From: Gammaproteobacteria bacterium
GTDB lineage: Bacteria; Pseudomonadota; Gammaproteobacteria; JABCZS01
Assembly: GCA_013289085.1 (NCBI GenBank)
Contig: JABDAR010000002.1
Coordinates: forward strand, 69,943-133,942
DNA: 64,000 nt
Direction: 5' to 3'
Shown: positions 3,531 to 22,921 of the stretch, one piece after another
How the letters are laid out: every line of letters starts with the position of its first letter
Numbering within the stretch: position 1 is the first letter of the stretch
Position numbers and translations under genes: made by a program
Notes under the pieces: model-generated
What the model was told of the DNA's origin: nothing
Databases searched by the model: none
The model's input: the letters and a program-made list of their open reading frames with translations, nothing else

Positions 3531-4391
3531 TTAAACTAAAAGCTTTTGCTGTTGTTCTTGTTGATCCCCATTGTTACGATTTTTTGACCATTGCTGGCAT
3601 TTAACATAACCATGCTTGGATATCACTGCAATCATGTTTAACGCACAACAACCACCAAGAATGCCGCCAATAATTGTAGCTGCGAGTATTAATTCGCTAT
3701 AATCTTTTTGTGGGTCGCAAGTATCCTTTACATGACTTTTTAAATCATCTTCAAATTTTTTACATAAAGCATCAGTAATATTTTGCCCAGCTACTTGTGT
3801 GTAAATTTGCACTTTATCAACCCAGCCTGAGCTCAGTCCATAGCCATCCAGTTTGATTTCAAAATCGAATTTACAAAGGTCCACCAACTCTTGTGCGCTA
3901 AAACCATATTCATCTATTAATTTTGGAAAATAATCATCGATCACATCTTTAACACACTTATACATATCAGCACCATTTGGCTCAACGTTGTCAGAATCTG
4001 CGGTTAATTTCCAACACACATCAGCGGCCGCTTGCGCAATATTGTCCAAATTTGTATTCATGTAAGCAAAACATTCAGTCTCTATATCTTTATCTCTAGT
4101 CGGCTCACAATAAGCTGTATTATTGGTTTTTGTCCAATTGGATGCAATATTGGTCAATGATGAATTGACAAGATAAATAGCTTCTTGATATTGATTAACG
4201 GGTAGCGATTTAACTATAGGCAAATTGGATAATAACACGCTGATAGCACTGGCAAATTTAACAACAGGGTTTATTTTAATACCCGATTGAGCATTTGACC
4301 ACGCAGTCGTTTTGGGTCCAGGATTGTTAATAGCACTATAAGGATTATAGTTATGCGTTTTTTTACGATTTTTTGTTTGATTTTTTGGCAT
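3531..4391 (-). CDS. hypothetical Cys-rich protein with a single C-terminal transmembrane helix (tail-anchored topology)
   Basis: 286-aa ORF with a basic N-terminus (MPKNQTKNRKKTH) and no signal peptide. More than 10 Cys are spread through the soluble part. Hydrophobic helix LILAATIIGGILGGCCALNMIAVI lies near the C-terminus, followed by a Q-rich tail. I recognise no family. Confidence 0.6.
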   Translation of the reverse strand: MPKNQTKNRKKTHNYNPYSAINNPGPKTTAWSNAQSGIKINPVVKFASAISVLLSNLPIVKSLPVNQYQEAIYLVNSSLTNIASNWTKTNNTAYCEPTRDKDIETECFAYMNTNLDNIAQAAADVCWKLTADSDNVEPNGADMYKCVKDVIDDYFPKLIDEYGFSAQELVDLCKFDFEIKLDGYGLSSGWVDKVQIYTQVAGQNITDALCKKFEDDLKSHVKDTCDPQKDYSELILAATIIGGILGGCCALNMIAVISKHGYVKCQQWSKNRNNGDQQEQQQKLLV

Positions 4392-6226: not shown

Positions 6227-6303
6227 CTGTTTTCTCCTTTTTTAAAGTACTAATCATAGCCTGAGTCTTTGCTAAAAATCAATTAGGCCCTACACTTCTT
6301 TTA

Positions 6304-7503
6304 ATGAATATACACGTTTTTTCCAAAACTTTTATGTCTATGGGTGTGATCTTATTGATCATTATCAGCACTGCTGTTGAGACTGATATTTTCCTGCCTA
6401 GCTTTCCTGCATTAAAAGAATATTTTGCTACCACAGAAAGTAAAATCCAATTACTCATCAGCGTTAATTTTATCGGTCTTTGTATAGCTTCATTTTTTTA
6501 TGGACCACTTGCAGATGCTTATGGTCGCAGGCCTGTTTTATTAATCGGTATGTTATTATTTACTTTAAGTAGCATCGCCTGCACTTTGGCGAATAGTTTA
6601 GAAGTGATGTTATTTTGGCGCTTTATACAAGGCTTGGGCGCTAGTGTAACGTTTATTGTGCCAAAAACCATGATTCACGATAAGTATGACCGTGAAGAAG
6701 CGGTTAAAATACTGGGTATTTATGGCAGTATTATCACTTTTGTATTAGCCTTTGCACCCATTATCGGTAATTATTTATATCTCACTTACTCATGGCGTGC
6801 TAATTTTATTTTTATTGCCATATTAGCCACATTTACTTTGTTATCTTCAATCATATTTTTGCGTGAATCACTGCATAAAGAAAAGCGCATTTTGATGCAC
6901 GCACCCACCATCATGAGGAACTATAAAAAATTATTAACTAACCCCACAGCCATGGCCTATTTATATTTATGCTGCGCTATTGTCGGTGCTTATGTGACTT
7001 ATATCACCAATTTATCGTTGATTTTCATTAATCATTTAGGCGTCAGCAAAATTAATTATGGCTACTATCAAGGCGTTATTTTGTTAGTTTTTGCCACCAT
7101 GAGTCTTTTTTCAATTCATATCATCAACCGATTAGGTATGCATTTTACTCGTATTCTGGGCATGAGTATTACTGTCATAGGCGCAATATTATTTTTAGTT
7201 ATTGCCCTATGGTTCCCTAATAGTCCATTATTTATTACCACAAGTATGACCTTATTTACCGGCGGATTAGCGCTTAATTTAGGCATTTTTTCAGGCGATT
7301 ATGTCAATGTCTATCCTGAAATAAAGGGTGTGGCAGCCGCCCTAGGCCGGAGTATAGGACTTATTATCACGTTAATATTTTTAGGTCTTTCTGCATATTT
7401 CTTTGATGGTACTATGCTGCCAATTGCATGGATTACCTTTTTTGCCGGCATATCTTCTTGGGCTGTATTATACTGGTTACATGTTAAAAGGAACTTTTCA
7501 TGA
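6304..7503 (+). CDS. MFS transporter, Bcr/CflA (DHA1) drug-resistance subfamily, copy 1
   Basis: 399 aa with about 12 predicted TM helices. N-terminal motif LPSFPALKEYF...GPLADAYGRRP is typical of Bcr/CflA exporters. It overlaps the next gene by ATGA. Confidence 0.85.
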   Translation: MNIHVFSKTFMSMGVILLIIISTAVETDIFLPSFPALKEYFATTESKIQLLISVNFIGLCIASFFYGPLADAYGRRPVLLIGMLLFTLSSIACTLANSLEVMLFWRFIQGLGASVTFIVPKTMIHDKYDREEAVKILGIYGSIITFVLAFAPIIGNYLYLTYSWRANFIFIAILATFTLLSSIIFLRESLHKEKRILMHAPTIMRNYKKLLTNPTAMAYLYLCCAIVGAYVTYITNLSLIFINHLGVSKINYGYYQGVILLVFATMSLFSIHIINRLGMHFTRILGMSITVIGAILFLVIALWFPNSPLFITTSMTLFTGGLALNLGIFSGDYVNVYPEIKGVAAALGRSIGLIITLIFLGLSAYFFDGTMLPIAWITFFAGISSWAVLYWLHVKRNFS

Positions 7504-8687
7504 GTACACGTATCTTTTCTCAAGCTTTTATGTCCATGGCTGTCGTTATATTGGTCATCATTACTTCCGCAATTGAAACCGATATTTTCCTGCCTAGTTT
7601 CCCTGCACTTAAAGATTATTTTGCGACCAGTGAACAAAAAATTCAAATGTTGATCACGATGAATTTTGTTGGTTTATGCATAGCGTGTTTCTTCTATGGC
7701 CCACTCGCAGATGCATACGGTCGCAGACCCATATTATTAGGGGGTATGTTTTTATTTACTGTCAGTAGCATAGCCTGCACGTTAACCAACAACCTAGATA
7801 CGCTATTATTTTGGCGCTTTATTCAAGGCTTAGGCAGTAGTGTTGCCTTTGTCGTACCTGAGACCATTATTCATGATAACTACAACCGAGAAAAAGCTGC
7901 AAAAATTTTAGGTATTTATGGCAGCATTATCACCTTCGTTATGTCATTTGCACCCATTATTGGCAATTATTTATATTTAACATTTTCCTGGCATGCTAAT
8001 TTTATATTTGTAGCCGTGTTATCCATTATTACTTTTTTAGCAGCATTGATTTTTGTGCGTGAATCACTCCATAAAGAAAAGCGTGTCATTCTGCATCCAC
8101 CTACAATTTTAAGCAGCTACAAAAAAATCCTCACAACACCCAAAGCCATGGCCAATTTATATTTATGTGTAGCCGTATCTGCTGCCTACTTTACATACAT
8201 CGCCAATTTATCCTTAATTTTTATTGATCATTTAAAAGTAGACAAAGAACAATTTGGTTATTATCAAGGATTTATTTTATTAGTTTTTGCAATCATTAGT
8301 TTTTCAGCAGGCAAAATTATCGCTGTCCTAGGATTAAATCGAGCACGCATTTTAGGAACACAAATTACTGTAGCGGGTTCCATATTATTTTTATGCGTAG
8401 CAATATGGGCCGGAGATAGCGCAATACTGATTACATTAGCGATGTCAATATTTACAGGTGGATTAGCTGTCAATTCTGGCATATTTTCTGGGGATTTTAT
8501 CAATATTTATCCTGAAATAAAAGGTATCGCAGCAGCCCTCGGTGCTAGTGTTGGCTTATTAGCGATGTTAGCGCTTATTGCACTATCAGGGATTTTCTTT
8601 AATGGAACGATGATGCCTATTGCTATTATGATATTTTTCTCAGGGATGTCATCGATATTGGTGTTACGTTGGTTGCATACGCATTAA
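7500..8687 (+). CDS. MFS transporter, Bcr/CflA (DHA1) subfamily, copy 2 (tandem paralog)
   Basis: 395 aa, collinear with and highly similar to the upstream gene along its whole length. Its stop TAA (8685..8687) overlaps the NRPS stop (8684..8686) within TTAA. Confidence 0.85.
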   Translation: MSTRIFSQAFMSMAVVILVIITSAIETDIFLPSFPALKDYFATSEQKIQMLITMNFVGLCIACFFYGPLADAYGRRPILLGGMFLFTVSSIACTLTNNLDTLLFWRFIQGLGSSVAFVVPETIIHDNYNREKAAKILGIYGSIITFVMSFAPIIGNYLYLTFSWHANFIFVAVLSIITFLAALIFVRESLHKEKRVILHPPTILSSYKKILTTPKAMANLYLCVAVSAAYFTYIANLSLIFIDHLKVDKEQFGYYQGFILLVFAIISFSAGKIIAVLGLNRARILGTQITVAGSILFLCVAIWAGDSAILITLAMSIFTGGLAVNSGIFSGDFINIYPEIKGIAAALGASVGLLAMLALIALSGIFFNGTMMPIAIMIFFSGMSSILVLRWLHTH

Positions 8688-11600
8688 AAATCAAAGTTTA
8701 TAATTTGCCCAAGTATATTACTGTGATGCGCTTGTTCTAACTGAATCACAGATAGTTGAGTAAGATTAGCGACAGCCTGATCGATATTATTATATTTAAT
8801 ATTATTGATAACATCTTGATCCGCACTCTTAATTGCTTCATAAGCATCATAAGTATCATCCCTTAATAAAGCTTTATATAAAACAATTTTTGTATTATGA
8901 AGCTTACATGAAATTGTCTGTTTATTTAGCATTTCATCGACTTCACTCACAGTCAATATATTGTCTACATATTCTTGACTAAAACCTTGAGCTAATAAAT
9001 GTTTTTTCAAGGCATTATCTTCTTCAGGATCATCAACTGTATAATGGTAGACTGAATCTAATAAATATATTTTAATATTAGTTATTCCTTCCGATTCTAA
9101 AAGAGCGGCCACTTCCAAAGCGATCACTCCACCCAGGGACCAGCCCAAAATATAATAATTATCTTGCTTAGTTTCTTCCATAATGCGTTTTATCGATTGC
9201 AAATAATATTTTGCTAAATCCGTTAATTTATTTATTTTTTTGGTATGATATAAATTATAAGAATCAACTCCAAAACAACTAAATTTATCAGATAATCTTT
9301 CAGCTAAATCATGATAAACTTCACAACCCGCATGACCAGGATGTATCATAAATAAATTTGGTTTCCCGGTGGTATTATTTAACTTCACCGTTGGTTCGTA
9401 TGTTCTTGTTAAAGCCACCTTGTTTTTTAATTGGTTGATGGTTTTGGAAACAAAAAGATCGGATATTTTTAATTGTGAATTGAAACTATGGTTAATTTTA
9501 GATAGTAATTTTATAGATAAAATACTATTACCGCCCAATTTGAAAAAGTCATCGTTTATACCTAGATTTTCTTCTTTCACATCCAATACTTCTGACCAAA
9601 TTTTTACTAATTGCTTTTCAATTTCGCTACGTGGCGCAATATATTTATCTGTACTAGTAAACTCTGTATCAGGCAATGCCCTGCGATCGATTTTACCATT
9701 AATCGTCAAGGGCAATTTATCAATTTTCATGAATATGGCGGGTATCATATATTCAGGTAAATGTTCTGATAAATATTGATTTAAATCATTTTTATCGATC
9801 TCTTGATCAGCAACATAATAACCTACTAAATATTTATTTTCGCCCCCGCATGCTAATACTACTGTTTGCTTAATATTTGGGAAATGAGCTAGCACTGACT
9901 CCACTTCTCCAAGCTCAATTCTAAAACCTCTGATTTTTACCTGAAAATCGCTTCTGCCGATATATTCAATATTGCCATCTGGTAAATAGCGCACTAAATC
10001 ACCAGTTTTATATATCCGTGAATTTTCTTCAAATGGATTATTTATAAATTTTTGTGCGGTTAATTCAGGATTATTGAGATATCCTCTGGCTAAACCAGCA
10101 CCACCTATATATAACTCACCTATAGCTCCAATAGGAACTGGATGTAATTGCGCGTCTAACACATATACTTTGGTATTGGCAATAGGGCAACCGATGTGAA
10201 TAGGCTCATTAGGTTTAAGTAGTGTGGTTGTAGAAACAATGGTCGTCTCAGTAGGCCCGTAACTATTTAAAACTAAAGCTGACGTATCTATTGGATGTAA
10301 ATATTGCTCACCACCCAATATAATCACTTTTATTTTTGATAAAGCATCTTTACTTAAATTTGAAATATAAGATGGAGTTGTATTTAAACAGGTAATTTTA
10401 GCTTTATTGATATAAGAATCTAATAAGTTCATATCTAGTAAAGTTTCTTTATTGACTAAATGCAATGTTGAACCAGATAACAAATTCATAAATATTTGCT
10501 CTACAGCTGCATCAAAAACATAATTTGCGGTAAGTAAAGTTTTTTGATTTTTAAAATTTAAACTGTCATTTTGGAACTTGATTTCATTAACCACACTTTG
10601 ATGTTCGATCATAACACCTTTAGGTTTACCTGTAGTCCCAGAAGTATATATTATATAGGCTAGATTTTTTGAACTTATATTAAGTTCAGGATTGGAAATG
10701 CTTTGCTTTAATAGTAATTTCTCAATAGATTTATCATTTATTGACAATACATTGTTTTTATTTGTAATAGTAGCTTTTGTTTTTATATCCGATAATATAT
10801 ATTTTACTCTATCATCTGGATACTCAGGATCCATTGGAACATATGCGCCTCCAGATTTCAAAACTCCTAATATTGCAATTAACATCTTATCACTTCTATC
10901 CAAACAAAGTGCTACGGGATCATCACCCTTAATTTTATAAGTTTTTCTTAGGTGGTGTGCCAATTGATTGGCTTTATGGTTAAGTTCTTGATAGGTTAAT
11001 TTAACATCTCCATAGACTACAGCTATATTATTAGGGGTTTTTTTGACCTGCTCTTCAAATAATTGATGAATAGTTTTATTTTTAGGATACTTTTTATCAG
11101 TCTCATTCCAGTCGTATATTATTTTCTTATAATACTTAGGTAACAAATAATTTATATTGACGTGTAATTGCTTAGGGTTTTCAATTACTTGTTTGATAAT
11201 TAAATTTATAGTGTCAAGTAAATCTTTTATAGTATTTTTTGAAAATAATTCTCCAGCATATTCAATTTCCAAAATAATTTTCTCTTTATTCTCCATGGCT
11301 GTTAAACATAATGGATAATCTATATCTTCAACAATTGTCTCAAAGTTAACATTTAATCCATTCATTTTAGCATTTTGATCTGGATAATTTTCGAATACTA
11401 ATAAGCTTTCAAATAACCTTTGTCCATCTTTTTGCAATTTTGCTAAGTTCATATTTCCATGGGCGCTCATTTCATTGAGTGAAATTTGAATTGATGATAT
11501 CATTTCAAAGATTGTTTTTGCTTCTTCATGATTGACGATGAGTGGCAACGTATTAATATATAATCCAACAGACTGCTCTATATTATCAATCGGCAGATTA

Positions 11601-14600
11601 CGTCCGGATATTGTTGTACCTACTATAGTTGTTTTACTATTACCATAAATACTTAAAATACTATGCCAGCAGTATTGTAGTATCGCATTTATGGTGAAGC
11701 CATGTGATTTAGCAAATGATTTAATATTTTTATACAAAATTCCCGATATATTTATTTCTTTCTTTTTCCTATCTAAAATATAGGTATAAGTTTTTAAATT
11801 TACTTTGTGTTTTAGTGGTTTTATAAGCCCACCTAAATCGGTATGATCTTCAATTTGGTTTACAGAATCTAGCCAATATGTGGAATCATATGTGTTTTGA
11901 AGATATTTCTGGATCTGTAAATAGCATGTATCTTCAGACTGTGTAATACTCATGTTATTTTTTAAATTTAAATAAGTTTGATGAACATAATCTAATAATA
12001 TAGGCACACTCCATCCATCTAATATAATATGATGATTACTGATGATGCTGGTATACAAAGACAAGGATTGTTTAATTAAATAAATTCTCAATAATCCACC
12101 TTGATCTAATTGGTAATTTTCTTGTCTATCGGCGGCCATTAATTCTCTTATCTTTGTCTCTTGTTCATTCATATTAAAACTTGAAATATCGATGTAATGC
12201 CAGTTAAGTTTTTGACTTTTATCTATCACTTGAACCAGTTCGTCTTCCCAGGAAAATCTAAGTCTTAATCCTGGAAATTTAGCAATTGCATATTCCCAAG
12301 ATTTTTTATATAAATCTGGATTCAATTCATTATGATAGCGATATATCATTTGTATACGATATGCGGTATCTTCTTTCCCTTGATTTATAGCATGATAAAT
12401 AAATCCTTGTTGCAAATTATTTGCTAAGAATATATTACTTACTTCTGTGTTATTTTGAAGTATATCTAAATATTCTGGAGAAATAATATTATCTATATCA
12501 CTGACGGTTAAATAGCTACGCTGTAAATTTACAGTATAATGAATTATCTCCCTTAACCTTTCTAAAAAAATATTGGAAAATTTACTTAAATTGTCTTGAC
12601 TTAACTTGGCACTTATATCAAAAATTAATTTACCATCACTGATATATCCATTTGCTTCGATGATATTTGAATCTTTATTTTCTAATGAAACAGCGATTCC
12701 ACTGGATTCAGAAGTTATATTTTCAAACTGCCCAAGATAATTAAAAACAATACAAGGTAATTTACTATAACCATATAATGCACCAAATCCTATACCTTTA
12801 TTGGGCAATAATCTTAAATGTTCTTTAGTTGCAATAATAGATTTTGATAAGTCTCCATGTGCAGTCAAGCAAATTGGAAACATCGTTGTAAACCAACCTA
12901 CAGTATGATTGATATCAATATCATTCACGATAGCCTCACGACCATGTCCTTCTAAAGTAATATAATTGATAGAGCAACCTGTCAGTTCAACTAAAGATAA
13001 ATTAAAAGCAGTTAATAATAAATCGTTGATTTCGGTGTTAAATGCTATATGGCTATCAGATAATAGTTTACGAGTATAGTTTTTATCTAATTCGATTATA
13101 ATATTTTTATCTACATTTTTATTTTCTATTAAATTTGTAAGATGCTTATTATATTTATTTACTTCTTGAATCATCTGTTTCCAATATTTATTTTCTGCTG
13201 TGTGCTTCTGCGGATACTCATTAACAACATTTATCCATTGGCGATAACTTGTGCCTTTATAACCTAATATCGTCTCAACATTATTTGAAGTCTCCGACTC
13301 TAAGTGAGAATAAATTTCCATCAGATCAGCTGATAATATTCTCCAGCTGACCGAATCGATAATGAGATGATGTGCAGCAATAAATATTCTAGCACTTCCA
13401 TCTTTGTAACCATTTATATAGCCAAAGCTATAAAGTGGTTCATCCCCCATTAACTCAAAATGGCTTTGCCAACCTGTTAATATTACATCTAAATCTTTTG
13501 AATTTTCCAAAGTATTTAAATCTAAAATATGTAATTTTGGTACATTTATTTTTACATTATAAAACTGTACAATTCCTAATTTTTTAGTTTTTTTATAATT
13601 AATTCTCAGTGCATCATGATATTCTACCAATTTAACTAAACTAGATTTCAATAATTCACAATTTAATTCTTTTGTTTTAATTAAAAATGATTGATTCCAA
13701 TGTCCAGGCTTATTGAATTCTCCATGCATAATATGATCAAAAAACCATTTTTGGATAGGTAGGAATTTTAAATCCCCATTCAAAACTCCTTCTTCTCGTA
13801 TTATGTGTGCCTTTTTAGTATTCAATAATTGGGAGGCAATAATATTTTTATACAAATTATCGATGGTTTTATAATTGAAAATATCTTTAATATTAACATG
13901 CAATCCTAAATGTTGTCGTAAACGACTTACTAATTGAATGCTTTTAATACTATCTCCACCCAATTTAAAAAAATCATCATTAATACTTAATTTACCTTCA
14001 TCAATGCTCAATACAGCAGACCAAATTTTCACTAATTTCTTTTCAATCTCTGTATTCGGAGCCACATATGTTTCATCATTTGTGAACTCTGGAATAGGTA
14101 ATGCCTTGCGATCTAATTTTCCATTAATAGTCAGAGGGAACTTATCTAACTGTACTAATGCCGCTGGCATCATATAATTCGGAAAATAATTAGATAAATA
14201 TTTAGTTAATGCATCTTTATCTAGTTGATTTTCTGCGACATAATAACCTACTAAGTATTTGTCTTGTGAACCTTGTACCAATACAACTGTTTGCCGAATA
14301 CCTGAATAATTTAAAATTCTTGTCTCTATTTCTTCTAGTTCTATTCTGAATCCTCTGATTTTTACTTGAAAATCAACTCTGCCTATATATTCTATATTTC
14401 CATCCAGCAAATAACGAACTAGATCTCCTGTTTTATATAATTTAGTGTTTTCTTGAAATGGATTAGGTACAAATTTTTGTGCAGTTAATTCAGGATTATT
14501 TAAGTAACCCCTTGAAATACCAGCACCACCTACATATAGTTCTCCTATGCCTCCTAATGGACTTGGCTTTAAACTGGAATCTAAAATATATGCAGATCGA

Positions 14601-17600
14601 TTATTAATAGGCTTACCAATGGGAACGGAATTTCTAGCTTTCAACGCATTAGCATCTACTTCCATCGTACAACTAAAAGTTGTATTTTCTGTAGGACCAT
14701 AACCATTAATAAAATGTTTTGGCCTATTTTTGGAGTTTACAAGTTCATTAATTATTTTATAATTTAATGCTTCGCCGCCCACCAACAAATATTTGAGAGA
14801 ACGAAACAATTCATTATTTTGGAGATATAATTCGTCAAATAAGGTTTTTGTTAACCATAATATAGAGATAGCATTTGATTCAATTGTTTTCCTAAATAAA
14901 GAAATATCCGCGACCAAACCTAATGTTTCTGAAGGAATATAAAGTTTAGCGCCATTGAGAATTGCTCCCCATATTTCAAATGTAGCTGCATCAAAAACCG
15001 TATCTGCTAATTGTAAAATACAATCAGATTCTGAAATATCCACATATGTTATACCTTTTACAAGAGAAACAACCCCTACATGATTTACCATTACTCCTTT
15101 AGGTTTTCCTGTGGTCCCGGATGTATATATAACGTATGCTAAATTATTGGGTGTGACAATCTTAGATGGATTTAAAGTACTTCTATTCAATAATAATTTT
15201 TCAATCGATTGCCCATCCACGTTGAGTATATTATTTTTATTGGTTATTAATACCTTTGCTTTCATATCTGATAGCATATATTTTATTCTATCAGCAGGGT
15301 AACCAGGATCCATTGGCACGTAAGCAGCCCCAGCTTTAAGCACGCCTAAAATAGCTATAATCATTGTCTCATTTTTATCTAAACACAACGCACATAAATC
15401 ATCTCCTTGAATTTTATATTGATCTCTTAAATAATGAGCAAATTGATTGGCTTTATGATTCAGCTGTTTGTAGGTCAAAGTAGTATCTTGACACACTATT
15501 GCTATATTATTAGGCGTCTTTTTTACCTGATCTTCAAAAATCTGATGAATAGTTTTATTTATTGGAAAGTTTTTAAAAGTATTATTCCAATCTAAAACTA
15601 TTTTATGATAATCCTTAATATCCAAATAATTTAACTGATTTATTTTGATGGTTGAATTCGTATTGAGCTGAGATAATTGTTTTAAGATAAATTTAAAGGT
15701 ATTTATAAATTTTTTAATGGTATTAAGATCATACAAACTGGCCGCATATTCCATCTGAGCATAAAGATTTTCTGTGCTATCGTCAATCATTGTAGTAATA
15801 TCAAATCTAGCAATATTATCCTCTAATTTATACTCCTCCACTCCTGGCAAATAATCATTTCCAAAATTTTGAACTCCAAAAACATTTTGAAAAACTGGAT
15901 TTCTACTTGTATCTTTTTCTAAAGATAATGCAGCAACTAATTTCTCAAAAGGTAAATCTTGATATAATTGTGCCTCTTGGACATTTTTTCCGACCGCTTG
16001 TATATATGAAATGAGATATTCAGTTGGATCAATATTAGATCTTAATACCAAGGTATTAACGAAAAAACCAATTAAATTTTCAATACCAGAATAATGTCTG
16101 TTGGCAACAGGCGTGCCAATAACGATATCATTTTGATTTGAGTAAGATCTTAAAAATAAATAATACCCACTTAACAATACGCTGTATAAGCTTACTTTTA
16201 AATCTTTAGCTAATCTTCGCAGTTGTGATGATGTTCGTTTACCTAGGTTAAATGAAACGCGTCCACCCTTGTAGTCTATAATTTTAGGACGTATTTTATC
16301 TATAGGCATATTTAACAATTCAAAGCCTGTTAATTGGTCTTTCCAATACGCTAACTGTCTAGATAATACTTCTCCTGACAAATATTTTTTTTGCCATATT
16401 GCAAAATCTTTATATTGAATATACAATTCTGGCAAATTTGTATTTGAGCTATAATACTTTGATAATTCTTCTAAAAATATGTCATTCGACCATCCGTCAA
16501 ATGCAATATGATGAATGACTATACTTAAATAGAGTTCTTGCGTTTCTTTTACTTCATAATAAGAAACTTGTATTGGATATTCATTAGATAAATTATAGAC
16601 ATGATTTATATCTTTTGATAACAATTGGTCAAGATCCGATTTTTTCTCTACCTTTATAGTTGTGATCGGTAATTCTTTTTCTTCTAAAGTACATACTTTT
16701 TGATAAGGTTTTCCATCATGATCTAAAATAAGAGTTCTTAAAATCTCATGACGTTCAACAATTTTTAAAATGCTTTTAGTCAGTTTAGTTTTATCAAGTC
16801 CAGATATTTTTAGTATTATAGGGATATTATATGCACCACTTCCCTGTTCATAAGACTCTATAAACCACAATCGTTCTTGGGCAAAAGAAAGCTCTTGTTG
16901 TGCTTCATTTGCAAATACATGTTTTTTTATTACAAAATTTTCAGATTTATTTCCTAATAAAGAAGCTATTCTACTAATGTTTGTATGAGTCAAGATATCC
17001 CGCATACTTAAATTAACCCCTGAACTCTTCAGCTGATTCAAGAGCTTAATTGCTGTAATACTATTTCCTCCCAATCCATAAAAATCATCATTGATACCAA
17101 TTTTGTCTTTATTAATTCCCAAAACTTCTGACCATATTTTTACTAATTTTATTTCAATTTTGGAGCATGGCGCAACATATGTATCTATATGAGAAAATTC
17201 AACTACAGGTAACGCTTTGCGGTCTAACTTGCCATTTATAGTTAATGGCAATTTTTCAAGTTTCATGAAAGCTACGGGAACCATGTATTCTGGTAATGAT
17301 TTGGATAAATATTTTTTTAGTGACTCATTATCTAATTCTTGATCTGATACATAGTAACCTACTAGACACTTATTTTGCTGCTCTTGAACTCCGATTGCCG
17401 CCTGCTTAACACCGGGATAACCTGCAAGTGTTGTTTCTATTTCTCCTAGCTCAACTCTATAACCTCTAATTTTAATTTGTAAATCTACTCTTCCTATAAA
17501 TTCAATATTACCATCCGGTAAATAATAGGCTAAATCACCTGTTTTATACATACGTTCATTGGGCTCAAATGGGTTGGCAATAAACTTTTGTGCAGTTAAC

Positions 17601-18712
17601 TCTGGTTGATTTAAATATCCTCTTGCAAGCCCAATTCCACCTATAAACAATTCACCTTGTTCACCTATAGGTACAGGATTTAAATGTGAATTAAGAATGT
17701 ATATTTTGGTATTAGCAAGTGGACGCCCTATATGAATTAATTGATTAGCTTTTACCGCTGTAATAGTTGAGCCGATGCAAGTCTCAGTCGGTCCATAACA
17801 ATTCAACACTGTGCCAGGTGTATCTAAATGCTTCAGATATTGTTCTCCACCTAAAAAAAGGAGATTAATTTTAGATAGCACTTCTTTACTTAGATTTGAT
17901 ACATAAGATGGAGTAGTATCTAACCAATTAATTTTATTTTTTATAATATAAGATTCTATAAATGGAATATTAAGTAAATATTCTTTAGCAACTATATGTA
18001 GCTGTGAACCCAAAAGTAAACTAATGAAAATATGCTCCACAGACACATCAAATACATACTCTGCAGTCAATAATGATCGTGGATTCTTGAACTTAAAATT
18101 AGATAACTGAAAGGTGATTTCATTAACCAGACTTTTATGCTCAATCATAACCCCTTTGGGAGTGCCGGTTGTGCCTGAAGTGTAAATTACATAAGCAATA
18201 TTGTCAGGATTATTATTTTTGATTGGATTAGTATTTTTATAATCTTTTAATGATTTTTCAGTCTTCTGATCATCTATTGTTAACGATTTATTTTTAGCAA
18301 ATCTTTTCTGATAGATTGCATTTGTAATTAAAACTTTAGCTTTAGTATCAGAAAGCATATAATCAATTCTATCCTGCGGATAACTCGGTGCAATCGGCAC
18401 ATATGCCGCGCCAGATTTAAGCACGCCTAATATTGCAATCAGCATTTTTTCACTTCTATCTAAACAAAGCGCAATCAAATCATCACCTTTAATCTGATAA
18501 GTTTGTCTTAAATAGTGGGCTAATTGATTGGCTTTTTGGTTGAGTTGTTGATAGGTTAATTGAATATTGCCAAAAACTACTGCAATATTATCAGGTGTTT
18601 TTAATACTTGTTCTTCAAATAATTGTTGAATTGTTTTATCTGGAAAGGGAGCTTTGGTTTGATTCCATTCATAAATTATTTTATTAAAATCTTTTGGATT
18701 AAGCGAAGCCAT
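8684..18712 (-). CDS. trimodular non-ribosomal peptide synthetase, A-T-C-A-T-E-C-A-T-TE
   Basis: 3342-aa ORF. It contains three full sets of adenylation core motifs (LTYxxL, YTSGTTGxPKG, NxYGPTE, GELxIGG, YKTGD, KIRGxRIELxE, NGKxDRxAL). It has three carrier motifs (GGNS, GGDS, GGNS), three HHxxxD(G) condensation/epimerization motifs, and a C-terminal GWSLGG thioesterase. Confidence 0.95.
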   Translation of the reverse strand: MASLNPKDFNKIIYEWNQTKAPFPDKTIQQLFEEQVLKTPDNIAVVFGNIQLTYQQLNQKANQLAHYLRQTYQIKGDDLIALCLDRSEKMLIAILGVLKSGAAYVPIAPSYPQDRIDYMLSDTKAKVLITNAIYQKRFAKNKSLTIDDQKTEKSLKDYKNTNPIKNNNPDNIAYVIYTSGTTGTPKGVMIEHKSLVNEITFQLSNFKFKNPRSLLTAEYVFDVSVEHIFISLLLGSQLHIVAKEYLLNIPFIESYIIKNKINWLDTTPSYVSNLSKEVLSKINLLFLGGEQYLKHLDTPGTVLNCYGPTETCIGSTITAVKANQLIHIGRPLANTKIYILNSHLNPVPIGEQGELFIGGIGLARGYLNQPELTAQKFIANPFEPNERMYKTGDLAYYLPDGNIEFIGRVDLQIKIRGYRVELGEIETTLAGYPGVKQAAIGVQEQQNKCLVGYYVSDQELDNESLKKYLSKSLPEYMVPVAFMKLEKLPLTINGKLDRKALPVVEFSHIDTYVAPCSKIEIKLVKIWSEVLGINKDKIGINDDFYGLGGNSITAIKLLNQLKSSGVNLSMRDILTHTNISRIASLLGNKSENFVIKKHVFANEAQQELSFAQERLWFIESYEQGSGAYNIPIILKISGLDKTKLTKSILKIVERHEILRTLILDHDGKPYQKVCTLEEKELPITTIKVEKKSDLDQLLSKDINHVYNLSNEYPIQVSYYEVKETQELYLSIVIHHIAFDGWSNDIFLEELSKYYSSNTNLPELYIQYKDFAIWQKKYLSGEVLSRQLAYWKDQLTGFELLNMPIDKIRPKIIDYKGGRVSFNLGKRTSSQLRRLAKDLKVSLYSVLLSGYYLFLRSYSNQNDIVIGTPVANRHYSGIENLIGFFVNTLVLRSNIDPTEYLISYIQAVGKNVQEAQLYQDLPFEKLVAALSLEKDTSRNPVFQNVFGVQNFGNDYLPGVEEYKLEDNIARFDITTMIDDSTENLYAQMEYAASLYDLNTIKKFINTFKFILKQLSQLNTNSTIKINQLNYLDIKDYHKIVLDWNNTFKNFPINKTIHQIFEDQVKKTPNNIAIVCQDTTLTYKQLNHKANQFAHYLRDQYKIQGDDLCALCLDKNETMIIAILGVLKAGAAYVPMDPGYPADRIKYMLSDMKAKVLITNKNNILNVDGQSIEKLLLNRSTLNPSKIVTPNNLAYVIYTSGTTGKPKGVMVNHVGVVSLVKGITYVDISESDCILQLADTVFDAATFEIWGAILNGAKLYIPSETLGLVADISLFRKTIESNAISILWLTKTLFDELYLQNNELFRSLKYLLVGGEALNYKIINELVNSKNRPKHFINGYGPTENTTFSCTMEVDANALKARNSVPIGKPINNRSAYILDSSLKPSPLGGIGELYVGGAGISRGYLNNPELTAQKFVPNPFQENTKLYKTGDLVRYLLDGNIEYIGRVDFQVKIRGFRIELEEIETRILNYSGIRQTVVLVQGSQDKYLVGYYVAENQLDKDALTKYLSNYFPNYMMPAALVQLDKFPLTINGKLDRKALPIPEFTNDETYVAPNTEIEKKLVKIWSAVLSIDEGKLSINDDFFKLGGDSIKSIQLVSRLRQHLGLHVNIKDIFNYKTIDNLYKNIIASQLLNTKKAHIIREEGVLNGDLKFLPIQKWFFDHIMHGEFNKPGHWNQSFLIKTKELNCELLKSSLVKLVEYHDALRINYKKTKKLGIVQFYNVKINVPKLHILDLNTLENSKDLDVILTGWQSHFELMGDEPLYSFGYINGYKDGSARIFIAAHHLIIDSVSWRILSADLMEIYSHLESETSNNVETILGYKGTSYRQWINVVNEYPQKHTAENKYWKQMIQEVNKYNKHLTNLIENKNVDKNIIIELDKNYTRKLLSDSHIAFNTEINDLLLTAFNLSLVELTGCSINYITLEGHGREAIVNDIDINHTVGWFTTMFPICLTAHGDLSKSIIATKEHLRLLPNKGIGFGALYGYSKLPCIVFNYLGQFENITSESSGIAVSLENKDSNIIEANGYISDGKLIFDISAKLSQDNLSKFSNIFLERLREIIHYTVNLQRSYLTVSDIDNIISPEYLDILQNNTEVSNIFLANNLQQGFIYHAINQGKEDTAYRIQMIYRYHNELNPDLYKKSWEYAIAKFPGLRLRFSWEDELVQVIDKSQKLNWHYIDISSFNMNEQETKIRELMAADRQENYQLDQGGLLRIYLIKQSLSLYTSIISNHHIILDGWSVPILLDYVHQTYLNLKNNMSITQSEDTCYLQIQKYLQNTYDSTYWLDSVNQIEDHTDLGGLIKPLKHKVNLKTYTYILDRKKKEINISGILYKNIKSFAKSHGFTINAILQYCWHSILSIYGNSKTTIVGTTISGRNLPIDNIEQSVGLYINTLPLIVNHEEAKTIFEMISSIQISLNEMSAHGNMNLAKLQKDGQRLFESLLVFENYPDQNAKMNGLNVNFETIVEDIDYPLCLTAMENKEKIILEIEYAGELFSKNTIKDLLDTINLIIKQVIENPKQLHVNINYLLPKYYKKIIYDWNETDKKYPKNKTIHQLFEEQVKKTPNNIAVVYGDVKLTYQELNHKANQLAHHLRKTYKIKGDDPVALCLDRSDKMLIAILGVLKSGGAYVPMDPEYPDDRVKYILSDIKTKATITNKNNVLSINDKSIEKLLLKQSISNPELNISSKNLAYIIYTSGTTGKPKGVMIEHQSVVNEIKFQNDSLNFKNQKTLLTANYVFDAAVEQIFMNLLSGSTLHLVNKETLLDMNLLDSYINKAKITCLNTTPSYISNLSKDALSKIKVIILGGEQYLHPIDTSALVLNSYGPTETTIVSTTTLLKPNEPIHIGCPIANTKVYVLDAQLHPVPIGAIGELYIGGAGLARGYLNNPELTAQKFINNPFEENSRIYKTGDLVRYLPDGNIEYIGRSDFQVKIRGFRIELGEVESVLAHFPNIKQTVVLACGGENKYLVGYYVADQEIDKNDLNQYLSEHLPEYMIPAIFMKIDKLPLTINGKIDRRALPDTEFTSTDKYIAPRSEIEKQLVKIWSEVLDVKEENLGINDDFFKLGGNSILSIKLLSKINHSFNSQLKISDLFVSKTINQLKNKVALTRTYEPTVKLNNTTGKPNLFMIHPGHAGCEVYHDLAERLSDKFSCFGVDSYNLYHTKKINKLTDLAKYYLQSIKRIMEETKQDNYYILGWSLGGVIALEVAALLESEGITNIKIYLLDSVYHYTVDDPEEDNALKKHLLAQGFSQEYVDNILTVSEVDEMLNKQTISCKLHNTKIVLYKALLRDDTYDAYEAIKSADQDVINNIKYNNIDQAVANLTQLSVIQLEQAHHSNILGQIINFDF
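8687..9370 (-). other. NRPS terminal thioesterase domain
   Basis: LFMIHPGHAGCEVY, nucleophile elbow ILGWSLGG (Ser3192), and C-terminal His in QAHHSNIL. Confidence 0.8.
9419..9640 (-). other. NRPS carrier domain 3, Ser3063
   Basis: DDFFKLGGNSILSIKL. Confidence 0.85.
9674..11080 (-). other. NRPS adenylation domain A3 (aa ~2545-3013), paralogous to A1
   Basis: Motifs AYIIYTSGTTGKPKGV, FDAAVEQ, NSYGPTETTIV, GELYIGGAGLARGY and NGKIDRRAL. Specificity residues are D A E N I G S I V K. Confidence 0.85.
11138..12511 (-). other. NRPS condensation domain C2 (DCL-like, follows the E domain)
   Basis: NLQQGFIYH N-terminal motif and SNHHIILDGWS active site (aa 2225-2235). Confidence 0.8.
12518..13795 (-). 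other. NRPS epimerization domain
   Basis: LPIQKWFF, AAHHLIIDSVSWRIL, TLEGHGRE and FNYLGQF are the E-domain core motifs. Confidence 0.85.
13838..14056 (-). other. NRPS carrier domain 2, Ser1588
   Basis: DDFFKLGGDSIKSIQL. The GGDSI variant typically precedes epimerization domains. Confidence 0.85.
14093..15565 (-). other. NRPS adenylation domain A2 (aa ~1050-1540), Val-type pocket
   Basis: Motifs AYVIYTSGTTGKPKGV, FDAATFE, LWLTKTLF, LLVGGEA, NGYGPTENTTF and NGKLDRKAL. The specificity residues D A F W L G G T F K match the canonical Val code as I recall it. Confidence 0.85.
15608..16900 (-). other. NRPS condensation domain C1 (LCL-like)
   Basis: LSFAQERLWFIE N-terminal motif and HHIAFDGWS active site (aa 734-742). 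Confidence 0.8.
16958..17170 (-). other. NRPS carrier (T/PCP) domain 1, Ser551
   Basis: DDFYGLGGNSITAIKL phosphopantetheine attachment motif. Confidence 0.85.
17198..18640 (-). other. NRPS adenylation domain A1 (aa ~25-505)
   Basis: Motifs AYVIYTSGTTGTPKGV, FDVSVEH, NCYGPTETCIG, GELFIGGIGLARGY, YKTGDL, KIRGYRVELGEIE and NGKLDRKAL. Specificity residues read against the GrsA numbering are D V E D F G C I G K. Confidence 0.85.
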
Positions 18713-18713
18713 T

Positions 18714-20030
18714 TCAATCCCTCAACACATGCATCCCCTTCAACACATTAACTGCTTCGTGTAATGGGTAATCAATGAGCTCTTCGCTGTTTTCGTTTTT
18801 ATCTTCATCATTATCCGTTACCACTTGGATTTCATCGATCTCTTGCACATTTGCATTATCTAAATGATTAGTCAAATGGGCTTCTCTTGTTTCTTCATAA
18901 ATGACTTCTTCTTTAATTTTTGTGGCTTTGATGTCTTCTAAAATAACATCGGGAACTATACCTTCTGCTTGGATGGAATGTCCTGCAGGTGTGTAATATA
19001 ACGCTGTGGTTAATTTTACAGCGCCATCATTACCAATGGGTAATACTGTTTGCACAGAACCTTTGCCAAAACTTTTCTCGCCCATAATGACTGCGCGTTT
19101 ATGATCTTGTAATGCGCCGGCTACAATTTCTGATGCGGACGCTGAACCGCCATTGACCAATACTACGATGGGTACGCCTTCTAGTAAATCACGGCCATTG
19201 GCTTTTTCTTTCATTTCACTTTCAGGTGCGCGACCTCTGGTAGATACTATGACTCTGTCATAATCTAATGTTCTGCTGTCTAAAAATACATTGGAAACGG
19301 ATACGGCTGAATCTAAGACACCGCCAGGATTATTACGTAAATCTAGTACTACACCGTATAATTGATTGTTAGAGGCGAGTTTAATTTCTTCAATGGCTTT
19401 TAATACATCTTTTATAGTTTGATCTTGGAAGTGGCTGACCCGCAGATAAGCATAATGAGGTTCTAACATTTCATAGCGAACACTTTCAACTTTAATGATA
19501 TCACGTGTCAGATCTTTGACGATGGGTAATGAAGCACCTTCACGCACGATGGTTAACTTTACCCTTGATCCTTTATCGCCACGCATTAAATCAACAGCTT
19601 CACGTAAGGTTAAACCTTTGACTAAGCTATTATCGATTTTTACAATAGTATCGCCTGCTTCAATACCGGCACGTGCCGCTGGGGTATTATCTATTGGACT
19701 AATGACTTTTACAAAACCATCTACCATCGTCACTTCTAAACCTAGGCCGCCAAATTTTCCGGCAGTACTGGCGCGCAAGTCGTTAAAATCTTCTTTATCT
19801 AAATAAGCAGAATGAGGATCTAGACCTGACAACATGCCGCTAATCGCATAATCAATTAATTCCGCATCGGAAACAGGTTCGACATAATATTGGCGAATTT
19901 CCTCGATAACATAAGTAAATTTTCTGAGCTCTTCTACCGGTAATTGTTCATCGGCTAGCGCTTGTGCCATAAATAAATAGCTCAAAACTATAATAGAGCT
20001 CAACCGTAAAAAATGTTTCGATGCTAGCAT
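18714..20030 (-). CDS. ctpA: S41-family carboxyl-terminal processing protease
   Basis: 438 aa with a signal peptide, a PDZ-like region (AARAGIEAGDTIVKID) and the catalytic motif GGSASASEIVAGALQD. Confidence 0.9.
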   Translation of the reverse strand: MLASKHFLRLSSIIVLSYLFMAQALADEQLPVEELRKFTYVIEEIRQYYVEPVSDAELIDYAISGMLSGLDPHSAYLDKEDFNDLRASTAGKFGGLGLEVTMVDGFVKVISPIDNTPAARAGIEAGDTIVKIDNSLVKGLTLREAVDLMRGDKGSRVKLTIVREGASLPIVKDLTRDIIKVESVRYEMLEPHYAYLRVSHFQDQTIKDVLKAIEEIKLASNNQLYGVVLDLRNNPGGVLDSAVSVSNVFLDSRTLDYDRVIVSTRGRAPESEMKEKANGRDLLEGVPIVVLVNGGSASASEIVAGALQDHKRAVIMGEKSFGKGSVQTVLPIGNDGAVKLTTALYYTPAGHSIQAEGIVPDVILEDIKATKIKEEVIYEETREAHLTNHLDNANVQEIDEIQVVTDNDEDKNENSEELIDYPLHEAVNVLKGMHVLRD

Positions 20031-20039
20031 AAAAAACCC

Positions 20040-21179
20040 CTAAGATTTCGACATGGGCGGCGCAAGCCAAGTCATTGGATTTTGCACCTCGCCATTAAAG
20101 CGTATTTCGAAGTATAACCCAGGATTTGCAACTGGGCCGCTTTTTCCGACCTGAGCTATAGATTCATTGACATCTACCCAATCACCTGCATTCTTATATA
20201 AACTTTGATTATGGGCATATAAGCTCATATAACCATCGCCGTGATCTACAATAGTAATCAAACCAAAACCTCGTAACCAATCTGCATAAACCACGCGCCC
20301 TTTATATATAGAACGCACGTCCTCTCCTTCAGGCGCTGCAATTAATATACCTTGCCAAGTATTATTACCGACATTGCTTTCCCCAAAACGATGCAGCACT
20401 TTGCCTTGCACCGGCCATGAAAGTCGACCTTGATGCGTTTTAATTGGTTTATTAGCATTACCCGTAAAAGTCGAACCACTTTGTTTTTTAAGACTGGCAA
20501 GCACGGCTTCTAGCGCTTGTTTATCGGCTTCTAAACTTTCTAAAGTCTGATTTTTTTCTTTAATATCGGTAAGCAATTCCTCAACTAAAGCACTTTGGGA
20601 TCTTTTTTGTTGAGTAAGTTCAGCATAAACAGCAGCTTGCTCCATTTCTAGCACATTTAATTTTTCTTGTTGTAATAATTGCTGCGCTCGTGTTTGCGCC
20701 AAGCTGTCTGTATCAATTTGAATTTGCGTGGCAATTTGACTGCGTGCCGCATTAAAATAATCAAAATAAACCAATAAACGACCTACAGTATGTGGATCGG
20801 ATTGATTAAGTAATAATTTCAATCCATCGAATTGTCCTAATAAAAAAGCACCGCGAATTTGTTCTCGCAACGCATCTTGTTGCACCTGCAATTCTTTTAG
20901 ACGCACTTCATATTCTACAGTCAGTGCTTCTAATACTTCTTCGGTTTTTGCAAGTTGATTTTGAGTTTTTTTCAAACTTTTAGACGATGTGGAAATTTCT
21001 AAATCTAGTTTTTTTAATTCATCTTGGAGTTTTTGTTGTTGATTTTTATCGGCAACCAATTCTGTAGTTAAATTTTTAATTTTATCAACCACAGTTTGTA
21101 GTTTAGTTTGCGAATCTGCAGAAGAATCTGCAAAGACCGCGCATGAAAAAAATAATATCCCTATAAAAAATAATCTCAT
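20040..21179 (-). CDS. envC: murein hydrolase activator / M23 (LytM) peptidase with coiled-coil N-terminus
   Basis: 379 aa with a signal peptide, a long Q/E/L-rich coiled coil and a C-terminal LytM domain (HGDGYMSLYAHNQSL, GLYFEIR). It has the conserved gpmI-envC position and overlaps the gpmI stop (ATGA). Confidence 0.8.
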   Translation of the reverse strand: MRLFFIGILFFSCAVFADSSADSQTKLQTVVDKIKNLTTELVADKNQQQKLQDELKKLDLEISTSSKSLKKTQNQLAKTEEVLEALTVEYEVRLKELQVQQDALREQIRGAFLLGQFDGLKLLLNQSDPHTVGRLLVYFDYFNAARSQIATQIQIDTDSLAQTRAQQLLQQEKLNVLEMEQAAVYAELTQQKRSQSALVEELLTDIKEKNQTLESLEADKQALEAVLASLKKQSGSTFTGNANKPIKTHQGRLSWPVQGKVLHRFGESNVGNNTWQGILIAAPEGEDVRSIYKGRVVYADWLRGFGLITIVDHGDGYMSLYAHNQSLYKNAGDWVDVNESIAQVGKSGPVANPGLYFEIRFNGEVQNPMTWLAPPMSKS

Positions 21180-22696
21180 TTTAATAACACGCGTCCTGTC
21201 ATTGGCTTTGGAATCGGCAATTCCATTAAAGATAAAATCGTTGGAGCTATATCGGCTAAAATGCCTTTATCATGTAGCACCGTAACGGGATGACCCACAT
21301 AAATAAAAGGCACTAGATCTAACGTATGTGCCGTATGGGCTTGATTGGTTTTCTCATCAAACATTTGCTCAACATTCCCATGATCAGCAGTGATGATACA
21401 TTCACCCCCCACTTGCTTTAAAGCATCAGTAATACGTCCTAAACACGCATCAATAGTCTCTACCGCTTGAATAGCAGCCGATAAATCTCCAGTGTGACCC
21501 ACCATATCTGGATTTGCATAATTCACAATAATACCATCAAATTTTTGCGATATAATTGCATTCACTAAAGCATCGGTCACTTCTATCGCACTCATTTGTG
21601 GTTTTAGATCATACGTTGCGACTTTGGGTGAAGGAATTAAAATACGTTCCTCGCCAGGAAAGGGTGCCTCAGCACCGCCATTAATAAAAAAAGTGACATG
21701 CGCGTATTTTTCAGTTTCTGCCAAACGCAATTGAGTTAAGCCATTTTGGGCCCAAACTTCACCTAAGACTGGAGACAAATTAGCGGGCGCAAATGCAATC
21801 TCACTTTTAATATCACCAGCATATTGTGTCATGGTTACAAAAGAAGATAAAGGAATCATCTCGCGCGCAAATCCTTTAAAATCAGCATCAATAAACGCAT
21901 GGCTTAATTCCCTTGCTCTGTCTGCACGAAAATTAGCAAAAATAATTCCATCTTGCTTTGCAATGCCTTTATAATGTTCATCCACAATAATCGGTTTAAC
22001 AAATTCATCTGTAATTTTCTGTTGATACGCGGTTTCTAATGCATCTAATGCAGAATTGGCGCGAAGTCCTTTTGCATTTGCAATTGCTTCATAAGCGAGT
22101 TGCACCCGATCCCAACGTGAATCTCTATCCATGGCATAATAACGTCCCATAATAGTGGCAATTTCACCTACACCTAATTCTTTTAATTTTTCTTCTAAGG
22201 CGACAATAGAGCTTCGCGCACTTTTAGGCGGAACATCACGACCATCTAAAAAGGCATGTACTTTAATTGATTTAACGCCGGCATTTTTTGCGGCCTCTAA
22301 TAAAGCATATAAATGACGTTCATGGCTGTGTACACCGCCTTCTGATAATAAACCCATAAGATGAAGAGTCTTTTGCTGACTCACCAATTTTTCAAATAGC
22401 TGACTAAATGCAGGATTATGAGCAAATTCACCGTCTCTAATAGCCTTTTCAATTCGGGTAAAATCTTGATACACAATACGACCTGCACCTATATTCATAT
22501 GGCCAACTTCAGAGTTACCCATTTGTCCTGAAGGTAAACCTACATCTTCATTGCTTGCAGATAATAATAAATGTGGATATGTTTGCCAAAGGCGATCCCA
22601 AACGGGCGTTTTGGCACAGGTAATAGCATTGTCTTTCGCGGCCTCACGATGTCCCCAGCCATCCAAAATCAATAATAAAAAAGGCTTTGCGCGCAT
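21176..22696 (-). CDS. gpmI: 2,3-bisphosphoglycerate-independent phosphoglycerate mutase
   Basis: LLLILDGWGH N-terminus and typical iPGM motifs. The ORF is open to 22708, but the ATG at 22696 follows GAGGA by 5 nt. Confidence 0.9.
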   Translation of the reverse strand: MRAKPFLLLILDGWGHREAAKDNAITCAKTPVWDRLWQTYPHLLLSASNEDVGLPSGQMGNSEVGHMNIGAGRIVYQDFTRIEKAIRDGEFAHNPAFSQLFEKLVSQQKTLHLMGLLSEGGVHSHERHLYALLEAAKNAGVKSIKVHAFLDGRDVPPKSARSSIVALEEKLKELGVGEIATIMGRYYAMDRDSRWDRVQLAYEAIANAKGLRANSALDALETAYQQKITDEFVKPIIVDEHYKGIAKQDGIIFANFRADRARELSHAFIDADFKGFAREMIPLSSFVTMTQYAGDIKSEIAFAPANLSPVLGEVWAQNGLTQLRLAETEKYAHVTFFINGGAEAPFPGEERILIPSPKVATYDLKPQMSAIEVTDALVNAIISQKFDGIIVNYANPDMVGHTGDLSAAIQAVETIDACLGRITDALKQVGGECIITADHGNVEQMFDEKTNQAHTAHTLDLVPFIYVGHPVTVLHDKGILADIAPTILSLMELPIPKPMTGRVLLK

Positions 22697-22732
22697 GAAA
22701 ATCCTCATATCTTTTAAAAATAAATGAATTCA

Positions 22733-22847
22733 CCCCCTTTATGAAAGGGGGTCGGCCGTAGGCCGGGGGGATTTTGCAAGCTTTAACGTATATGCAAAAA
22801 TCGCAAAATCCCCCCGCCTTGCAGGCGGCCCCCTTTCATAAAGGGGG
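22733..22847. repeat. 115-bp GC-rich nested inverted-repeat element (MITE/REP-like)
   Basis: Two 45-bp arms (22733..22777 and 22803..22847) lie in inverted orientation around a 25-bp AT-rich spacer. Each arm holds a local hairpin CCCCCTTT-ATG-AAAGGGGG, a second 5-bp hairpin (CGGCC-GTA-GGCCG versus CGCCT-TGC-AGGCG) and GGGGGATTTTGC. Confidence 0.8.
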
Positions 22848-22921
22848 CGATATATTATGTGTTGCCAGTATAAAGTATGATATCATTTTCCTCTACTGAT
22901 ATCGCAAAGAGACCAAAACCC

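Follow-up and report, generated by a model that had tools for sequence, protein, structure and literature searches.

The synthetases for tyrocidine, gramicidin S and bacitracin, together with PvdL of the pyoverdine pathway, are canonical linear type I nonribosomal peptide synthetases (NRPSs) of the L-D-L kind. Here, modules are built in the A-T-C manner, a carrier domain with a GGDSI motif is followed by an epimerisation (E) domain and then by a condensation domain of the DCL type, and a type I thioesterase (TE) stands at the end. A second point of reference is ACV synthetase, a single protein of ~3,300-3,800 amino acids that begins with an adenylation (A) domain, has no starter condensation (C) domain, makes a D-Val tripeptide, and ends in a TE. 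Its substrates are Aad, Cys and Val, and its E domain lies in the last module, which gives the order LLD.

A third point of reference is taxonomic. Orphan NRPS clusters whose products are unknown have been described in Legionella (Tobias et al. 2016, PMC5126622; Johnston et al. 2016, PMC5640695). As far as the available portions of these papers go, such clusters, diverse as they are, rely on one Sfp-type PPTase whose gene lies at another place in the genome (PMC5126622). The product predictions in the same portion of PMC5126622 concern only monomodular NRPSs and one NRPS/PKS hybrid, and no mention of a tripeptide, or of Lys, Arg or Val, was found there.

The locus described here has something in common with each of these. 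It lies in a window of 64,000 nucleotides (the whole stretch of DNA that was analysed) from a Legionellales-like host; its genes, like the orphan clusters, would be Legionellales genes. With the canonical synthetases it shares modular A-T-C construction, the triad of GGDSI-type carrier, E and DCL domains, and the terminal type I TE; indeed, its E, C1 and C3 domains find their best structural-sequence matches among those enzymes. Unlike them, it packs three modules into one protein, within a minimal cluster that has no tailoring genes, and no characterised homologue comes close to it (identity of 49% or less). With ACV synthetase it shares the single protein, the A domain at the beginning, the TE at the end, and a predicted tripeptide containing D-Val. 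Unlike ACV synthetase, it holds its E domain in module 2, with a DCL domain following (hence L-D-L), and the residues flanking the Val are predicted to be basic. The gene and its domains are as follows.

8684-18712, minus strand: NRPS gene, 10,029 nt encoding 3342 amino acids, A1-T1-C1(LCL)-A2-T2-E-C3(DCL)-A3-T3-TE (ORF list, translation, Pfam)
17198-18640, minus strand: A1 adenylation domain, about aa 25-505, code DVEDFGCIGK, predicted for Arg or another basic residue (alignment and code comparison)
16928-17155, minus strand: T1 carrier, LGGNSI at aa 547-552 (Pfam, motif)
15620-16903, minus strand: C1 condensation domain, LCL type, HHIAFDG at aa 734-740 (Pfam, PDB similarity, motif)
14087-15538, minus strand: A2 adenylation domain, about aa 1059-1542, code DAFWLGGTFK, for Val (alignment and code tables)
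13847-14038, minus strand: T2 carrier, with the E-partner motif LGGDSI at aa 1584-1589 (Pfam, motif)
12488-13795, minus strand: E epimerisation domain, about aa 1640-2075, with HHLIIDS, EGHGRE and FNYLGQF (PDB similarity, TIGR01720, motifs)
11093-12460, minus strand: C3 condensation domain, DCL type, HHIILDG at aa 2227-2233 (PDB similarity, motif)
9662-11056, minus strand: A3 adenylation domain, about aa 2553-3017, code DAENIGSIVK, predicted for Lys, with Arg possible (alignment and codes)
9413-9625, minus strand: T3 carrier, LGGNSI at aa 3059-3064 (Pfam, motif)
8687-9358, minus strand: TE thioesterase, GWSLGG with its serine at 3192 read from the sequence (Pfam, motif)

Pfam recovers three AMP-binding, three Condensation, three PP-binding and one Thioesterase match in this protein. 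Their positions, and those of the motifs, agree with the domain order A-T-C(LCL)-A-T-E-C(DCL)-A-T-TE that had been claimed in a first-pass annotation. An A domain comes first in the protein, and the earliest Condensation match starts only at aa 604; therefore, there is no starter C domain, as that annotation had also held. The A-core motifs LTYxxLN, YTSGTTGxPKG, YKTGD, GRxDxQxKIRGxRxEL and NGKxDR each occur three times, and the model TIGR01733 matches with 1251 bits. The carrier serines stand in LGGNSI twice and, before the E domain, in LGGDSI; the catalytic histidines stand in HHIAFDG (C1), HHLIIDS (E) and HHIILDG (C3). All of the catalytic motifs are intact, within a reading frame that runs for 10 kb without interruption. 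Judged by these features, the gene is intact and probably encodes a functional linear type I NRPS.

The substrates are, of course, a matter of the A domains. Their codes were read from a MAFFT alignment of A1, A2 and A3 to a fragment of GrsA that is 100% identical to residues 183-526 of PDB 1AMU and that has D235 at the expected place. The alignment returns the codes listed above, reproducing exactly the three that had been proposed before. A1 and A3 are 64.7% identical to each other, and 47.6% and 51.2% identical to A2, which bears out the claim that the first two are paralogous and stand apart from the third. Whole-domain similarity to PDB entries was rejected as a guide to substrate: domains for Phe, Val and Arg/Tyr all score ~390-410 bits, without discrimination. 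A search of the searchable literature for the exact codes, and for their prefixes of 6-8 letters, found none.

A2 presents the simplest case. Its code matches the published Val code of MlcM (PMC9113097) at ten of ten positions, with no code-level difference between the two domains, and that of PhnE (DVFWLGGTFK) at nine; FenC (DVFWIGGTFK) is a further Val domain of this kind. The earlier assignment of A2 to Val is thus the published one for this code.

For A1 and A3, comparison was made with 140 published codes taken from the available parts of a 2025 compilation (PMC12283262, supplement) and of a study of the anabaenopeptin synthetase ApnA (PMC5311044). Arg, Lys, Orn, Pro, Glu, Gln, Asp, Asn, Thr and Ser are the substrates represented. 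The comparison further took in the tables for Trp, Dab, Dap and His, some of the one for Val and the beginning of the one for Ala. Among the 140, the ten codes nearest to A1 are all for Arg (identity of 7/10 at most), and the ten nearest to A3 are all for Arg or Lys. Dab was ruled out for both domains, the Dab codes in these tables being unlike either. Thus, within the tables compared, A1 keeps the basic substrate first claimed for it, and neither a non-basic substrate for A1 or A3 nor a substrate other than Val for A2 emerged.

Which basic residue each domain takes is a finer question. For Arg, the consensus in the literature reads D-[A/V]-E-D-[I/V/L]-G-A-[V/I]-[T/D]-K; A1 agrees with it at seven of ten positions and deviates at 299, 322 and 331, where F299, C322 and G331 are unusual. 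Among the Arg and Lys domains in the tables compared, ApnA A1 (DVEDIGAIEK, an Arg code; PMC5311044), FJ695_03625 (DAEDVGVIGK), AvCA_25570 (DAENIGAITK), BacB-M1 (DAESIGSVCK, whose DAESIGSV is a Lys code) and CphC (DAEDIGTIIK) match the A1/A3 group at 7-8 of ten positions. Shared with A1 and A3 are the Glu at 239, the Asp or Asn at 278 and the Gly at 301. The combination of F299, C322 and G331 in A1, and that of S322 and V331 in A3, occurs in none of the Arg and Lys codes that were compared.

A position-specific model was built from the codes for Arg, Lys, Orn and Dab; it is crude, rests on a subset of the tables, and separates Arg from Lys correctly in 45 of 52 leave-one-out trials. It scores A1 at -14.9 for Arg and -19.4 for Lys, and A3 at -12.0 for Lys and -15.7 for Arg. 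The deciding positions are 322 and 331, where the Lys codes in these tables have Thr or Ser and usually an aliphatic residue, and the Arg codes have Ala and a polar residue. At code identities of only 70-80% for A1 and A3, Arg is the favoured substrate of A1. Lys is favoured for A3, if not securely. This applies also to the earlier view that A3 is Lys-like: its ten nearest codes in the set are all for Arg or Lys and the model prefers Lys, but its single nearest code, DAENIGAITK (8/10), is an Arg code.

This leaves room for the same assembly line to use other basic residues, with Lys, Orn or homoarginine at position 1, Arg at position 3, or both (Lys-D-Val-Lys, Arg-D-Val-Arg and Lys-D-Val-Arg are examples). 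Such a product is possible, if not the one to be expected. Beside its 8/10 match to an Arg code, A3 matches four Lys codes in the set at 7/10. ApnA variants with codes of the DVEDIGG type take both Arg and Lys (PMC5311044), the code DVESIGGVTK is reported to serve homoarginine as well, and the orthologue of A1 in a related genome (SPRUCE_566, below) has the Lys-like code DMEDIGSII(K), which is 8/10 identical to DAEDIGTIIK. Conversely, the S322 and V331 of A3 are found in Lys codes and in 0 of the 31 Arg codes compared, and the small C322 and G331 of A1 fit the Arg set of these tables better. A pattern in which a basic residue, D-Val and a second basic residue follow one another is well supported, while Arg-D-Val-Lys as the exact sequence is only a best guess.

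The middle of this pattern depends on the condensation and epimerisation domains. The region from aa 1640 to 2080 might, in principle, have been a plain C domain. Against the PDB, however, its best matches are all epimerisation domains (PvdL, TycB, BacC, GrsA 5isw and TycA 2xhg, with E values of 1e-50 to 1e-43), and ten of ten matches are E domains or chains that contain them. The E-associated NCBIfam model TIGR01720 matches here and nowhere else in the protein, with 57.7 bits (E 1.2e-15), which is below its curated threshold of 74.2. The motifs PIQKWF, EINDLLL, EGHGRE, TVGWFT, PNKGIGFG and FNYLGQF are all of the E type. The domain is flanked by the GGDSI-type carrier on one side and the DCL-type C3 on the other.

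One feature of the E domain might be thought inactivating. Its histidine motif, HHLIIDS, ends in Ser where HHxxxDG ends in Gly. In 107 E-type homologues with EGHGR, this last position is occupied by Gly 54 times, by Ala 26 times, by Thr 16 times, by Ser 9 times and by Val twice; inactivation by this replacement was therefore ruled out.

By the established logic of their pathways, the C domains of McyB, BacC, PvdL, TycB1 and SrfA-C are of the DCL type. C3 resembles these D-donor domains best: McyB at 2.7e-51, the E-C didomain of BacC at 2e-45, and PvdL, TycB1 and SrfA-C between 1e-34 and 1e-31. The LCL domain of TycC6 comes far behind, at 2e-13. For C1 the order is reversed, with the LCL domains of Txo1 (7e-63) and TycC6 (1.6e-61) ahead of DCL domains at 1e-28 to 1e-18. 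These comparisons support the assignment of C1, E and C3 as LCL, E and DCL, as first read from motifs. Because the best matches of the E domain, the DCL type of C3 and the Val code of A2 agree, and LGGDSI agrees with them, D-Val at position 2, which had been expected from the outset, is well supported as a prediction and is its strongest part.

The assembly would then proceed as follows. Module 1, an A-T pair with neither a C nor an F domain, would load a basic residue of L configuration, Arg being the likeliest, and leave its alpha-amine free. The LCL domain would couple this residue to L-Val on module 2, where the E domain would epimerise the Val of the dipeptide bound to T2. The DCL domain would hand the dipeptide, now ending in D-Val, to a second basic residue, most likely Lys, on module 3, and the C-terminal TE would free the product. 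The simplest product would be the linear, dicationic L-Arg-D-Val-L-Lys, with a calculated [M+H]+ of 402.282 (374.276 for Lys-D-Val-Lys).

Linear release would, of course, be the choice of the TE. The domain matches PF00975 with 62.5 bits and has the GWSLGG motif. We take the partners of Ser3192 in its triad to be Asp3219 and His3329/3330, by analogy with the spacing in SrfTE. Its similarity to solved TEs in the PDB is remote (E ~1e-6), and it diverges from hydrolysing and cyclising ones alike. It may therefore be asked whether it cyclises its substrate (as an epsilon-lactam of the C-terminal Lys, or a head-to-side-chain lactam) or oligomerises it (as a cyclo-dimeric hexapeptide in the manner of gramicidin S). 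A terminal residue with a side-chain amine would adjoin the TE, TE domains that close a ring on a terminal N-hydroxy-Orn are in the literature, and so are iterative TEs. Iterative use is rare in that literature, however, and no sequence feature of this TE points specifically to iteration or to lactam formation. Cyclisation or oligomerisation is accordingly rather unlikely, and hydrolysis to the linear tripeptide is the preferred reading.

A free N-terminus is likewise what the domain order would predict. Enzymes encoded elsewhere might acylate or otherwise tailor the peptide and block its N-terminus, since the 64-kb window shows only a part of the genome. This seems most improbable: the protein has no starter C, F or acyl-ligase domain, and the island in which it lies contains only the NRPS and two MFS genes. 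That island and its surroundings comprise the following.

6285-18713, no strand assigned: inserted island of ~12.4 kb, made up of the NRPS gene and both MFS genes and bounded by the ctpA stop and, at the other end, by the conserved trx promoter (comparison with a Legionellales MAG, GC content)
6304-7503, plus strand: MFS1, a tandem paralogue of MFS2 (66% identity), in the island
7500-8687, plus strand: MFS2, an efflux transporter of the Bcr/CflA type, in the island and convergent with the NRPS
18714-22708, minus strand: host operon gpmI-envC-ctpA, directly upstream of the NRPS

The two adjoining Bcr/CflA-type pumps probably export the peptide. Their genes overlap by 4 nt (ATGA) and are translationally coupled; the stop of MFS2 overlaps the opposite-strand stop of the NRPS gene, again by 4 nt (TTAA at 8684-8687), and no terminator lies between these convergent genes.

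At its other end, the NRPS gene begins 1 nt after the ctpA stop, with a GAGGGA Shine-Dalgarno sequence inside the end of ctpA, and no terminator-like site was found between the two. Therefore, the gpmI-envC-ctpA operon is the likely source of transcription, and the NRPS would probably be expressed by read-through from it. A scan for promoters and terminators was uninformative, finding 79 promoter-like sites where 92 were expected. A search of the 64-kb window for PPTase and MbtH motifs gave neither; this is no problem, since Legionella has its one Sfp-type PPTase at a distance. The window has no Rfam match.

Beyond the far end of this operon, between gpmI and a rhodanese gene (22730-22850), lies a GC-rich composite palindrome of ~115 nt. 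It consists of two copies of the hairpin CCCCCTTT-NNN-AAAGGGGG, with an inner GGCCG/CGGCC hairpin pair on either side; the hairpin motif occurs twice in the window, where chance would predict 0 occurrences. The palindrome could be an element of the REP or MITE kind, or a bidirectional terminator or regulator.

The island is recognised by composition and by comparison. Its GC content is 0.30 (0.301), against 0.385 in the flanks, and its GC3 is 0.21, against 0.26-0.35. Neither repeats nor inverted repeats were found to flank its ends. A scan of genome contigs returned only two relatives, and a scan of metagenome contigs returned none; the Rho of the window shares a 90% cluster with proteins from "Legionellales bacterium" MAGs. 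A Legionellales MAG (GCA_041660525.1) has the order rhodanese-gpmI-envC-ctpA-trx-rho-thrABC, with trx directly after ctpA. In the window, 19 nt past the start codon of MFS1, the sequence returns to the conserved trx promoter region. These two facts together mean that the NRPS and both MFS genes are an insertion of ~12.4 kb; they would have come jointly, as a low-GC island, to a place right behind ctpA. Elsewhere in the same neighbourhood, between rho and thrA, the window has an ORF of 286 amino acids (3531-4391, minus strand) with no Pfam match, which is a singleton at 90% clustering; the MAG has at the same position an ORF of 184 amino acids, also with no Pfam match.

A peat-bog MAG, SPRUCE_566, presents the other state, in which ctpA and the NRPS gene join exactly as in the window. 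The flanking proteins of the two genomes share 78-88% identity, and the N-termini of their NRPSs share 71%. Between the two NRPS genes, dN/dS is 0.20 and dS is 0.97, equal to that of the flanks. This indicates that the gene has been inherited vertically, together with its flanks, under purifying selection. The genome of the window is slightly nearer to SPRUCE_566 than to the MAG that lacks the island, and a single gain is the simplest reading of the distribution.

These comparisons also bear on the question of whether the gene is a horizontally acquired relic, decaying or silent, that makes no product. Its composition is foreign, no PPTase or MbtH gene is near, and some of its relatives (below) are damaged: one has an in-frame stop in A3, and the TE relatives in Ca. 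Megaera are remnants truncated by IS elements. A relic, however, would hardly hold an uninterrupted frame of this length with every catalytic motif in place, nor a dN/dS of 0.20 against an orthologue at dS ~1, nor a ribosome-binding site directly before its start codon with a housekeeping operon 1 nt upstream. That the gene is a relic is very unlikely. A functional three-module NRPS, delivering a tripeptide of a basic residue, D-Val and a basic residue, with release by the TE, export by the MFS pair and origin in an island, is as a whole the probable reading.

Within this small family, A domains appear to change. Over the stretch that can be compared (6447-7745 of the SPRUCE_566 contig, 17420-18712 of the window), A1 is 71% identical overall, and its code differs from DVEDFGCIGK at four of the nine readable positions. 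Identity falls to 53-60% over aa 281-360. Read from the codes, A1 may have undergone a shift in specificity from Lys to Arg between the sister lineages.

A second example is found at the other end of the gene. A contig of 2598 bp from JGI 3300038619 aligns to positions 7755-10137 of the window. It retains T3-TE (85-100% amino acid identity), the convergent MFS gene and the junction between TE and MFS. Its last A domain, in the part upstream of NRPS aa ~2850, either shows no more than 45% identity or cannot be aligned, and code positions 322, 330 and 331 are A, V and F, where A3 of the window has S, I and V. This suggests that recombination has replaced the specificity-conferring core of A3. 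The contig's one in-frame stop falls where the window has the Q of YYVADQE.

Outside these related contigs, the best identity is 49% or less for A1-T1, 47% or less for E, and 54% or less for TE, except for one metagenome fragment that is 93% identical to the TE. The nearest TE and E relatives, at 40-47% identity, are found in protist-associated or low-GC bacteria: Ca. Megaera, a plasmid of Ca. Bandiella, Rickettsiales MAGs, Francisella and Chryseobacterium. A few are in eukaryote assemblies (the rotifer Rotaria, the nematodes Plectus and Acrobeloides, and the fungus Modicella), and flavobacteria too have relatives of moderate similarity. Whether Ca. Megaera and an ENA metagenome have the same cluster around their TE relatives was considered and rejected, the loci being IS-truncated (as the Megaera copy is) or NRPS loci of a different organisation.

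The NRPS described here is another example of a well-known kind of enzyme, and the prediction of its product is a standard in-silico prediction for an orphan cluster. It leaves the current understanding of NRPS enzymology unchanged and brings no new mechanism. Its interest lies instead with the organism. The Legionellales are known for their protein effectors, and their small-molecule chemistry has barely been explored. Here, an island of three genes with a fairly confident product prediction offers a compact and easily tested case from an uncultured source; a gene of ~10 kb and expected masses of 402.28 or 374.28 are within reach of synthesis and heterologous expression. The replacement of an A-domain core in a near relative would be a small natural case of NRPS diversification. 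A wider view may be offered as speculation, and in its entirety it is unlikely. An uncultured, probably protist-associated member of the Legionellales would have acquired a minimal NRPS-exporter island and wired it to gpmI-envC-ctpA; it would make constitutively a dicationic L-D-L tripeptide, a new class of small molecule for the order, which would act on hosts or competitors and which relatives would diversify by swapping the cores of their A domains.
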